Assembly: GCA_034429595.1 (NCBI GenBank)
Contig: DAOUGB010000068.1
Location: 11,067-75,066 of the forward strand
DNA: 64,000 bases
Reading direction: 5' to 3'
Source: Dehalococcoidales bacterium
GTDB taxonomy: Bacteria; Chloroflexota; Dehalococcoidia; Dehalococcoidales; RBG-16-60-22
Shown here: piece after piece, positions 33,311 through 35,586 of the stretch
Layout: every line of letters begins with the position of its first letter
Position numbering within the stretch: position 1 is the stretch's first letter
The notes under the pieces: generated by a model
Seen by the model: the letters and a program-made list of their open reading frames with translations, nothing else
Databases searched by the model: none
Told to the model about the DNA's origin: nothing
Program-made: the position numbers and the translations under genes

Positions 33311-34714
33311 TTACCATAATCTTGATGGTTTATACGCTGACTCAAAGTGTTTTCTCCCTTCCGTTCTTTCCGGCTGCGGGGGCAAGACAGGTTCAATAAT
33401 CGGCGGTTCCAGCCCCAAGATTGCAGCATCACCAGGATGTAACTTCAGGTAATTTTTAGCAATTGTCCGTGCCGGTTCAATAGCTTGCATATCTGAATAG
33501 TTGAATCTGCTGTACCCCAGGCCACCTATCCCGAGGGATGCGGTCATAATTTCATGATAGGAATGATGCTGGGAAGGCGGCAAAAGGTTGGCCAGCACCA
33601 CCAGACGCGCTTCTTGAAGCCCCACCCGCCACGGGCTGCCAAACCTGTAATAAATCTCAAGATAACGCAGTGATGTCCCGGAAGGGCCCGATATCAGCGG
33701 CATCCCGCGCTCCCAGGCTTCCTGTATCCATAAATTGGCCGGATTAAGGATATTGATCTGTTCGCCTGCATAAGCCTGGCGGTATTCCATGCCGCGCGGA
33801 TTGAACGTGCCCAATGATAGATACTCTTCTGATACCGGCTCCTCATTGACCTCTTCACTCCAGGCATAACCTACCGACGTTAATACATGGAGCATCTGGT
33901 GCACGTCCGGCCAGGTTTCTTCCAGGTAGCCCCGCACCGTAACCGGTTCGGTATTAGGAAGATTCCTGGTGACACTATGCCATTCGCCTGATCCGGGTAT
34001 TCTCCCTCCCGGCTTGAAAAAGCCGTTTAACACCGGTTTTATCGCTTCGCCTACTTTCCTCAACAGCTTAGCCGGCCATAAACGGTATTCCAGTTCCCAG
34101 GGTTTGAAATCGAACGGCAGAGGTTTCGGCATCCCTAGCTGCTGATAGTTCCTGGCTTCGGCAAGGACATTACCCTTGCCTGCCATGCCGGGAAGCATCG
34201 ATTCATGGAGTCTTTTTTCCAGGTTAATGAGTTTTACTACCTTGTTGACATTGGTATCCAGGTCGTTGGTGCTCTTGGTAAATTCAGCCAGACTTATGAT
34301 TTTACCGGCAATGCCGCTCCTCAAAGTATCCGGAGTGATATGTTCTTTGATGCCGGGAATAAAATGACCGCTAATATCTTCAAAAATCATCCTCGCCCAC
34401 AGGCTGACGGCCCCGGTGCCTCTAAGCTGCTCGCCCAGATACCTTTCAAAACCATTGCGGACCGCTTCTTCCTCGCCGACCGGGTGGTCGGATATCCTTT
34501 GAATGGTAATACCCGCAAGTTTCATGCCGCTGACCGACACTCCGGCATGGGCCGGCGTTTGTAACATATCATTCCGTTTCCTCTGCGCCGCCGCTTCCGG
34601 GCGGCTGTCCGTAAACTCCATCATCTGCTGCCCGCCGTTTTTCTTTTTAGTAACGATATCGGCGGCGCTGCTGCTCTTATTACGTTTACCGTGTATTGCC
34701 ATTACATTTTTCAT
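33311..34714 (-). CDS. hypothetical protein, candidate eCIS cargo/effector 2 (467 aa)
   Basis: Its N-terminal leader (SSSAADIVTKKKNGGQQMMEFTDSRPEAAAQR) is shared with the upstream gene. The rest has no recognisable family. Confidence 0.5.
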   Translation of the reverse strand: MKNVMAIHGKRNKSSSAADIVTKKKNGGQQMMEFTDSRPEAAAQRKRNDMLQTPAHAGVSVSGMKLAGITIQRISDHPVGEEEAVRNGFERYLGEQLRGTGAVSLWARMIFEDISGHFIPGIKEHITPDTLRSGIAGKIISLAEFTKSTNDLDTNVNKVVKLINLEKRLHESMLPGMAGKGNVLAEARNYQQLGMPKPLPFDFKPWELEYRLWPAKLLRKVGEAIKPVLNGFFKPGGRIPGSGEWHSVTRNLPNTEPVTVRGYLEETWPDVHQMLHVLTSVGYAWSEEVNEEPVSEEYLSLGTFNPRGMEYRQAYAGEQINILNPANLWIQEAWERGMPLISGPSGTSLRYLEIYYRFGSPWRVGLQEARLVVLANLLPPSQHHSYHEIMTASLGIGGLGYSRFNYSDMQAIEPARTIAKNYLKLHPGDAAILGLEPPIIEPVLPPQPERTEGRKHFESAYKPSRLW

Positions 34715-34746
34715 AAATCTCCTACCTCTTTCCGTGCACTTTATCC

Positions 34747-35586
34747 CTACCAGTTTGCAACCAAGGCGCTAGGAGTGATTAACCCCGCCACATTGGCTCC
34801 CGATACCGTGTTATCAATAACCTTGAGCACCTGCTCTCCAAAAAGCGCGCAATTCATTTTATGTTTAGCAAAGCTACCCTCGTTCACCAGCAACTGGAAT
34901 CTATAGTTATTTTGTTGCCCCTGTAAAACGCGGGCGCGGGCGATGGCGTCAGCCGCCAGGTTATGATTCACGCGCCTATTGCTGTTAGTCCCAGATTCAA
35001 GGTTGTGCGCTATCGAATTATAATCATCCCGTATGATGATATTGATTTTATCGCCCCTGGAGCCCGAGGTAGCCGAGGGGCTTTGAGCACTACCCAAACT
35101 ACTCGTTGAACTGGAGGTATCGCTAGGTGACCGTGTAGTGCTCTTGGAAGCACCGCTGGTGCTGCTTCCCGTCAACTCAATCATGTAATTCTTCAGATGG
35201 TCATCAGTATCCTTATGCTCCATTAACAACCGGGTGTGCCCCCATAACGGACCGACATTGGAAGCAATTACGACACTGTCATTATCATTTATTGTGACAT
35301 CACTTCTAGCTTCCGAAGTTCCAGTTATTGCGCTTCCTTTCGTCACTACTCTTTGAACAGCGTCATTCTTGGAAACGTCACCAGCCAAGTCTGATTTAGA
35401 TTCACCGTAATGATTAAGCATCATTCTCTGTAAAGACTGTTGCGCCGCCGCTTCCGGCCGGCTGTCTTCAAACTCGAATGCCCCTCTCCCACCGTTCTTT
35501 TTTTGGGTAATAATATTAGCAACGGCGCTGCTTTGACGCTGTTTAATGGGTGTCTCCATTAACGTATTCATTACTTGCCTCCTCAT
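34747..35586 (-). CDS. hypothetical protein, candidate eCIS cargo/effector 1 (279 aa)
   Basis: It has the leader SSAVANIITQKKNGGRGAFEFEDSRPEAAAQQ, a Ser/Thr-rich linker (SSTSGASKSTTRSPSDTSSSTSSLGSAQSPSATSGS) and an unassigned C-terminal domain. Confidence 0.5.
   Translation of the reverse strand: MRRQVMNTLMETPIKQRQSSAVANIITQKKNGGRGAFEFEDSRPEAAAQQSLQRMMLNHYGESKSDLAGDVSKNDAVQRVVTKGSAITGTSEARSDVTINDNDSVVIASNVGPLWGHTRLLMEHKDTDDHLKNYMIELTGSSTSGASKSTTRSPSDTSSSTSSLGSAQSPSATSGSRGDKINIIIRDDYNSIAHNLESGTNSNRRVNHNLAADAIARARVLQGQQNNYRFQLLVNEGSFAKHKMNCALFGEQVLKVIDNTVSGANVAGLITPSALVANW

Follow-up and report, generated by a model that had tools for sequence, protein, structure and literature searches.

A conserved N-terminal leader shared by two candidate cargo proteins for an extracellular contractile injection system from a Dehalococcoidales bacterium

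Introduction

Protein-delivery tools are being engineered from the particles of extracellular contractile injection systems (eCIS), in whose function the loading of cargo is the step least well understood. In AlgoCIS from Algoriphagus machipongonensis, the cargo proteins Cgo1 and Cgo2 share an N-terminal domain (NTD) that is disordered and is required for loading (preprint 10.64898/2026.05.27.728243; PMC8894135). In combination with DUF4157, this NTD brings BlaM and Cre into the lumen of the tube; the ATPase activity of the AAA+ protein Alg15 is necessary for loading (preprint 10.64898/2026.05.27.728243). The payload signals of the Photorhabdus virulence cassettes (PVC; Pdp1 and Pnf) and the Afp18 signal of the antifeeding prophage (Afp) are summarized as hydrophilic, disordered N-terminal stretches of about 20 to 70 residues that direct diverse payloads into the tube, with involvement of the AAA+ ATPase Pvc15 or Afp15 (as summarized in PMC11297309 and PMC11495950). 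No conserved sequence was detected for eCIS signals (PMC11297309), and eCIS loading sequences have been stated to be system-specific (preprint 10.64898/2026.05.27.728243). Here, we describe two adjacent genes, named A and B, in an eCIS operon from a Dehalococcoidales bacterium (GenBank assembly GCA_034429595.1, contig DAOUGB010000068.1, positions 11,067 to 75,066; this stretch of 64,000 nucleotides, analyzed over its whole length, is referred to as the window), whose products begin with a common leader followed by unrelated C-terminal domains.

On the basis of the leader, its wide distribution, and the position of the two genes, we give a probability of roughly 80% to the proposal that A and B are payloads (effectors) of the window eCIS tagged by this leader, the loading itself being argued by analogy with the systems above. 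We lean, by a narrower measure, toward the broader view that this leader is a loading tag, searchable with a hidden Markov model (HMM), that is common to one large set of eCIS across several phyla.

Results

Two adjacent genes of an eCIS operon share an N-terminal leader

The window holds a complete eCIS operon on its minus strand, with A and B between the CIS_spike_tip and AAA genes (Table 1). A preliminary description of this DNA had placed both genes in the slot between the baseplate genes and the AAA+ ATPase, and the Pfam matches to CIS_spike_tip upstream and AAA downstream agree with this. From the spike tip gene to the tape measure gene the intergenic gaps are only 11 to 32 nt, and the ATPase gene starts 15 nt past the B stop codon. 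Comparison of the two proteins by BLASTP gave a single significant segment at their N-termini, with 25 of 51 residues identical (49%) and 69% similar (E = 3e-11), and no other similarity was detected outside these N-terminal 51 or so residues. The earlier claim that the proteins are unrelated over most of their length and have an N-terminal block in common is confirmed by this comparison.

The open reading frame (ORF) of A as listed (34747-35586) encodes 279 residues. An ATG at 35571 has the sequence AGGAGG 6 nt upstream, and gene calls on four metagenome contigs with the same locus give a protein A of 274 residues. Judged from these sequence features, A most likely starts at 35571 and has 274 residues instead of 279, so that of the two sizes first reported (279 and 467 residues) only that of B stands. 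The corrected start brings the two leaders into register from Met1, without an offset. Their net charge is +2 in A and +6 in B, disorder-promoting residues make up 60-64%, and residues 1-78 of B are unstructured in the AlphaFold2 model, with a predicted local distance difference test (pLDDT) score below 35. The leader, about 55 residues long, is hydrophilic and positively charged, and it is probably disordered.

The similarity is also visible in the DNA, as had been noticed near 35455 and 34590; over the codons of the core D-S-R-P-E-A-A-A-Q, 25 of 26 bases are identical (35440-35466 versus 34583-34609). Identical codons are used at 7 of the 9 core positions and at 17 of the 25 identical residues across the leader, and the probability of seven core codon matches, given the codon usage of the operon, is about 5e-4. 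This codon identity points to a shared ancestry of the two DNA segments or to conversion between them, and it is what would be expected if the shared N-terminus were a functionless remnant of a recent local partial duplication or gene conversion. However, the same leader is found at the same position in hundreds of protein clusters from Bacteroidota, Desulfobacterota, and Gamma-, Alpha-, and Betaproteobacteria, and such family-wide conservation implies selection on the leader itself, by which the explanation as a remnant is effectively refuted.

Within the 64-kb window, a six-frame search with both leaders revealed no copies beyond those of A and B. An HMM built from 127 leader members, a training set that included A and not B, gave scores of 69.8 bits for A and 51.8 bits for B and found no third match in the window even at E ≤ 10.

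The leader defines a protein family across several phyla

A search of protein databases with the shared block, as proposed in the preliminary description, showed that the leader is widespread. A word-indexed search with the alignment of the two leaders gave no match, as none of the candidates had three 5-residue words in common with it. A HMMER search of the two-leader profile against 1.84 billion cluster representatives (clusters at 50% identity; E ≤ 1e-3) matched 507 protein clusters. The statistics on register, C-termini, and copy number given here and below rest on the 150 listed of these 507. Of the 150 listed members, 144 have a leader that begins at or before residue 5 and 148 one that begins at or before residue 20, and the lengths of the members range from 59 to 1187 residues. 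The family consensus is MNTHADKTQENKSQSVANAVSQKKSGGESTFQFVDNRPEAIAQRKLQEM / MNTHADKTQENKSQSVANAVSQKKSGGESTFQFVDNRPEAIAQRKLQEMANNSPQ, with a conserved core of Q-K-K-x-x-G-x-x-x-F-x-F-x-D-N/S-R-P-E-A-x-A-Q-R-K-L-Q and near-invariant residues at N19, F34, D36, N37 (N/S), R38, P39, E40, and Q44. No model covering the leader was found in Pfam or NCBIfam, and the string DNRPEA was absent from the searchable papers. As a strongly conserved multi-phylum sequence family, the leader therefore appears to be undescribed in these databases and in the literature searched.

When one genome per species was scanned with a pattern, 26 loci were obtained. Those from Bacteroidota belong to Marivirga, Algibacter, Kordia, Mariniphaga, Fulvivirga, Fluviicola, Crocinitomix, and Aquimarina, and the others to Desulfobacterales, Desulfobulbia, the gammaproteobacterial groups Glaciecola, Alteromonadaceae, and Pseudoalteromonadaceae, a member of the Rhodobacteraceae, and Pandoraea. 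The leader is also present in Shewanella psychropiezotolerans and in a cyanobacterial metagenome-assembled genome. A further profile of 39 leader sequences, whose search returned only proteins of 100 residues or fewer, was used for context look-ups. The sole plasmid match for either leader is the N-terminus of a DUF4157 protein from Fulvitalea axinellae; no eCIS was found within 20 kb of this gene on its plasmid, and the eCIS tape measure gene was found on no Fulvitalea plasmid.

Toxin domains and DUF4157 follow the leader in part of the family

The regions following the leader were compared with Pfam for 140 members. In 38 of these (27%), the eCIS_core/DUF4157 domain directly follows the leader. 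Other domains found after it include a Scabin-like ADP-ribosyltransferase, transglutaminase (TGL), C39, C70, Matrixin, Reprolysin, a non-specific endonuclease (Endonuclea_NS_2), and two deaminase domains, whereas the majority of members showed no known domain. The 124 members of at least 170 residues, among the 150 listed, fall into 109 C-terminal similarity groups. This number of groups, with toxin domains among them, supports the original suggestion that a shared leader on divergent C-termini acts as a modular tag.

More than one leader copy is present in 34 of the 150 listed members, some of them in tandem at the N-terminus. In about 19 of the 150, the order is leader, DUF4157, a second near-full leader copy at about residues 180-250, and then the C-terminal domain; examples are P0002, P0005-P0008, P0016, P0017, P0030, P0044, and P0061. 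This double-leader architecture resembles two units, one of leader and DUF4157 and the other of leader and effector, joined in frame, and it may bear on the role of DUF4157, for example in cleavage between the units.

An alternative is that the leader is mainly a processing or inhibitory pro-region, which would keep the effector inactive in the producer until it is removed. In one version, it would be recognized or cleaved by the HExxH metallopeptidase DUF4157, in cis or, for the window, in trans by the stand-alone protein of 191 residues. The frequency of DUF4157 after the leader is in line with this role, the second internal copy between DUF4157 and the C-terminal domain would suit a linker or cleavage site, and short DUF4157 ORFs beside the ATPase gene in other loci carry a weak or truncated leader core. 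The proximity of the DUF4157 gene to B in the window points the same way. However, the NTD of AlgoCIS is needed for loading while its DUF4157 is dispensable (preprint 10.64898/2026.05.27.728243), and the N-terminal position of the leader in nearly all listed members is more in keeping with a signal for threading than with a cleavage site inside the protein. We therefore regard a pro-region as an unlikely account of the leader, and the two roles, pro-region and loading signal, are not mutually exclusive.

Neither A nor B contains DUF4157, as no eCIS_core match was obtained in Pfam even at E ≤ 10. The gene for a stand-alone DUF4157 protein is located two genes downstream of B, and the presence of a DUF4157 gene within two genes is a published adjacency predictor of eCIS-associated toxins (PMC11297309). 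The leader HMM detected no leader in this 191-residue protein. Visual comparison places its residues 33-47 (GINTGPRVTEQAKRQ) almost in register with FVDNRPEAIAQRKLQ, P, Q, K, and Q being shared, and this segment may represent a leader that has decayed.

Around arrays of leader genes, ORFs that consist of the leader alone are frequent, as are tandem half-leaders and genes in which leader and DUF4157 are split (L035:2332-10288, L022:11011-11157, L040:9998-10435). They are consistent with decay or recombination at the leader, and some of the leader-only or split ORFs may be assembly or frameshift artifacts. As the leader is a self-contained N-terminal module, new C-terminal domains could be recruited by recombination at or just after it. 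Such cassette exchange is plausible because the C-termini are hypervariable, leader-only fragments and internal copies occur, and A and B share identical codons in the leader. A leader of the kind found in ribosomally synthesized and post-translationally modified peptides was also considered for the short leader-only ORFs and nearby radical SAM genes, and was rejected, since the partners joined to the leader include large enzymes and DUF4157.

Leader genes adjoin eCIS machinery in other bacteria

Inspection of the genomic surroundings of other leader genes identified several eCIS loci with leader genes in them. A related eCIS locus from Desulfobacterales (L006) has, inside its baseplate module, a pair of adjacent leader genes that neighbor gp25 and Baseplate_J and lie upstream of gp25; the C-terminal domains that they encode are unrelated. 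In L009 and L024, the leader genes follow the AAA and DUF4157 genes, and L022 has three leader copies near the tape measure gene. The Shewanella locus L036 shows CIS_TMP, AAA, and two eCIS_core genes followed by three leader genes, and about nine leader copies or fragments lie upstream of the Pvc16_N gene in L035. The longest array (L041, 3788-17141) consists of eight successive leader genes with differing C-terminal parts that adjoin AAA and CIS_TMP; weak Pfam matches to an inositol polyphosphate kinase domain and to Barstar were seen within it. L122 likewise has an array of leader genes next to CIS_TMP, AAA, or Pvc16_N genes. The window ATPase is 46-49% identical to the ATPases encoded beside the leader arrays in L009, L024, L036, and L041.

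These contexts also allow a structural or accessory role of A and B to be weighed, in which they would serve as a spike decoration, tube plug, fiber, or assembly chaperone and dock to the spike or baseplate through the N-terminus. Both genes come directly after the spike tip gene, the two leader genes of L006 lie in the baseplate module, and no fold was identified for either C-terminal domain, all of which such a role would accommodate. Nevertheless, the C-terminal parts joined to the leader form at least 109 unrelated groups, toxin domains included, and the leader occurs in arrays of up to eight genes as well as in orphan genes far from any eCIS. These diverse fusions, arrays, and orphans do not fit stoichiometric structural parts. 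The B domain is moreover encoded without a leader next to type III secretion genes, and no fiber, baseplate, or tube match was obtained for A or B in Pfam, so that we judge this role to be highly improbable. The expectation that A and B would prove unlike structural components is upheld by the Pfam result, by the unrelated C-termini in L006, and by the hypervariable C-termini of the family.

Other N-terminal blocks may be used by related systems. In L048, L050, and L053, which have a similar ATPase, adjacent genes share a different N-terminal block, (I/L)QRKLxxGxxxDxxExEADxxAxxVMRM, which looks like a second leader class sharing the short QRKL element. The presence of another block at some loci suggests that the leader is one of several eCIS N-terminal families. 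A scan of viral contigs with the ATPase identified one locus, in which no leader was found. The eCIS on a Persicobacter plasmid also showed no leader. Its organization looks different, as its annotation includes a run of leucine-rich-repeat genes and, in the vicinity of the tape measure gene, no gene for an AAA ATPase.

The C-terminal domains of B and A

No match to Pfam or NCBIfam was obtained for A or B. The C-terminal domain of B has few relatives, and alignment with these homologs identified the invariant motifs S342-G-P-S-G346 and H383-H-S-Y-H-E388. One relative, P0152, is 49% identical to B and carries a divergent copy of the same leader. Another, P0156, combines a Bacteroidota-type leader with the B domain and is encoded at the 3′ end of another eCIS operon, which contains CIS_TMP, AAA, Pvc16_N, and eCIS_core and is adjoined by a second leader gene. 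In the low-confidence AlphaFold2 model, B is all-alpha beyond residue 78, and searches with Foldseek and sequence profiles gave no match in the PDB.

Two further relatives come from two Pseudomonas genomes (P0154 and P0155). They are homologous to the B C-terminal domain over about 68% of its length and retain both SGPSG and HHSYHE, and they have a different N-terminus in which the HMM found no leader. Their genes lie directly 3′ of genes for a type III secretion system (T3SS) like that of Salmonella pathogenicity island 1 (SPI-1), encoding IpaC/SipC, the tip complex, PrgH, the needle (prgI), PrgK, and OrgA. On the basis of this gene position, the Pseudomonas proteins are possible uncharacterized T3SS effectors. 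A domain that accompanies two injection machines, each with its own N-terminus, has the signature of an effector, and the link to a T3SS hints at a eukaryotic target. The Pseudomonas genes (L032:10001-11362 and L123:10001-11356) are preceded by ORFs of 144 and 148 residues, which could encode chaperones, and a gene for a TcdA/TcdB-type glycosyltransferase is located nearby in L032.

The C-terminal domain of A is interrupted by a Ser/Thr-rich low-complexity stretch and is related, weakly, only to that of P0066 (23% identity over 208 residues, E = 1e-5), a protein composed of a leader, DUF4157, and an A-type C-terminal domain. It contains the conserved motifs W-G-H112 and N-C241-A-x-F. That A might be a permuted papain-like peptidase, with the His before the Cys in an H112/C241 dyad, is a guess that found no statistical support. 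Sequence-profile searches gave no real PDB match for A or for the leader. As first noted from the sequence, neither C-terminal domain resembles a known toxin family, and the searches of Pfam, NCBIfam, and the PDB are in accord with that.

Organization of the eCIS operon and its neighbors

The operon is headed by a gene for a transcriptional activator (Table 1). The structural module that follows encodes, in order, the Pvc16_N cap, the sheath, two gp19 tube proteins, CIS_tube, a VgrG-like spike, gp25, and a Baseplate_J protein of 1256 residues (Pfam), and then two baseplate-region proteins of 248 and 708 residues and CIS_spike_tip. The 248-residue ORF (38181-38927), between Baseplate_J and the 708-residue protein, has no Pfam match and contains GNIGIGTTSPQATLDVEG, which we take to resemble phage or eCIS tail fiber motifs; this protein may be the receptor-binding protein of the window eCIS.

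Table 1 Features of the eCIS operon in the window, in order along the minus strand
Feature	Position	Strand	Basis
BTAD/Trans_reg_C transcriptional activator, operon head	50062..51111	-	Pfam BTAD, 2.8e-21
eCIS structural module	36058..49589	-	Pfam matches
Spike tip protein, directly upstream of A	35583..36029	-	Pfam CIS_spike_tip, 1.6e-27
Cargo candidate A, 274 aa, leader and C-terminal domain	34747..35571	-	ORF, corrected start
Leader of A, residues 1-56; core D-S-R-P-E-A-A-A-Q at 35440-35466	35404..35571	-	Leader HMM, 69.8 bits
Cargo candidate B, 467 aa, leader and all-alpha C-terminal domain	33311..34714	-	ORF, homologs, low-confidence model
Leader of B, residues 1-56; core D-S-R-P-E-A-A-A-Q at 34583-34609	34547..34714	-	Leader HMM, 51.8 bits; BLASTP versus A
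AAA+ ATPase (Afp15/Pvc15/Alg15-type), presumed loader	31937..33295	-	Pfam AAA, 1.5e-28, and winged-helix N-domain
Stand-alone DUF4157/eCIS_core protein, 191 aa, HELAH motif	31345..31920	-	Pfam eCIS_core, 9.2e-25
Tape measure protein, 1201 aa	27712..31317	-	Pfam CIS_TMP, 4.4e-107

The tape measure gene contains a tandem repeat of 183 nt (61 residues) at 30014-30461, with 2.4 copies at 73% identity, and three further repeats of about 36 residues are found downstream in its translation (LTDKGLPDAG...). The number of these repeats could tune the particle length and hence the cargo capacity. Directly downstream of the tape measure gene (24078-27372), Pfam identified a radical SAM gene, an N6_N4 DNA methylase gene, and a spore-photoproduct-lyase-like radical SAM gene. 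In the independent metagenome contigs L001 and L002, radical SAM and methylase genes and a ParB_N ORF are likewise located 3′ of the eCIS. The GC content falls to 42% between 24 and 28 kb in the window.

Discussion

The shared leader, the otherwise unrelated C-termini, and the place of both genes in a complete eCIS operon argue for A and B as payload proteins. In the mechanism that we propose, each would be a two-part protein made of a leader and an unrelated C-terminal effector domain, and the leader family would constitute a loading signal. If the window eCIS works as AlgoCIS and PVC do, the AAA+ ATPase whose gene comes right after B would recognize the leader, unfold A and B, and thread both into the inner tube lumen. 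Contraction of the sheath would expel them into the target cell, where the C-terminal domains would refold and act.

Several results weigh against A and B being payloads or against the leader being a general eCIS tag. Of the 26 genome loci with a leader, 13 have only housekeeping neighbors within 10 kb, and two of seven further leader contexts have no eCIS marker. With half of the sampled loci more than 10 kb from eCIS genes, the tag is not confined to eCIS loci; the leader genes far from an eCIS look like orphan effector genes. The link between leader and eCIS that was initially anticipated thus stands for the arrays beside CIS_TMP, AAA, and Pvc16_N and does not extend to exclusivity. Among 80 metagenome loci selected solely for an ATPase 43-53% identical to the window ATPase, only four contain the leader at E ≤ 1e-3, and five others (L088, L089, L095, L098, and L106) show only a weak, truncated leader core. 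In these five, and in one of the four (L109), the truncated core is carried by a short ORF immediately upstream of the ATPase gene, visibly a DUF4157 protein in at least L098; a weak or truncated core is found in a short ORF beside the ATPase gene of L009 too. In a neighbor-joining tree the leader-positive ATPases cluster only partly, and this does not demonstrate a specific pairing or co-evolution of leader and ATPase. Neither C-terminal domain matches a known toxin family, and the AlphaFold2 models are of poor quality, with a pLDDT of 54 for B and of 32 for A, the latter model being unusable.

If the broader view is correct, a sequence-defined tag would contradict the statements that eCIS signals have no conserved sequence and that each system has loading sequences of its own. 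Hundreds of unexplored effector domains, including those of orphan genes far from an eCIS, would then be marked by the tag, the B domain would represent a new effector fold that serves eCIS as well as type III secretion, and the internal and tandem leader copies would record cassette exchange. For the window, the two uncharacterized genes would be identified as probable payloads of its eCIS. More generally, the leader profile could serve as a genome-wide finder of eCIS payloads, including orphans missed by position-based predictors, and the family as a catalog of more than 100 uncharacterized C-terminal effector domains. The near-invariant residues (F34, D36, N/S37, R38, P39, E40, and Q44) would provide a handle on recognition by the ATPase or the tube.

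Several known systems can be set beside this locus. The MIX, FIX, and RIX markers of the type VI secretion system (PMC10435454) are also conserved N-terminal markers joined to many toxin domains and often found in orphan genes; they belong to another machine, have no sequence relationship to the leader, and are folded domains that bind the spike or an adaptor, so that the likeness is one of analogy only. The Pseudomonas proteins P0154 and P0155, linked to an SPI-1-type T3SS, have a B-like C-terminal domain and, unlike B, another N-terminus and no leader. The eCIS toxins defined by DUF4157/eCIS_core (Geller 2021, PMC8213781; Danov 2024, PMC11297309) form a class that overlaps with 27% of the leader members, whereas A and B lack DUF4157 and the leader is a separate module upstream of it. 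In contrast to the PVC and Afp signals, which were compared by description only, the window leader has a strong consensus detectable by an HMM.

AlgoCIS resembles the window eCIS in its two cargo genes per operon, with a common N-terminus and different C-termini, in its AAA+ gene, and in the association with DUF4157. It differs in that Cgo1 and Cgo2 hold DUF4157 between the NTD and the C-terminal domain, while A and B are without it and DUF4157 is encoded as a separate leaderless gene. The AlgoCIS NTD is described as system-specific, whereas the window leader belongs to a multi-phylum family, a comparison made with Cgo1 and Cgo2 by description only. Cargo with an N-terminal loading sequence is an already known kind of eCIS feature, and A and B are new members of it.

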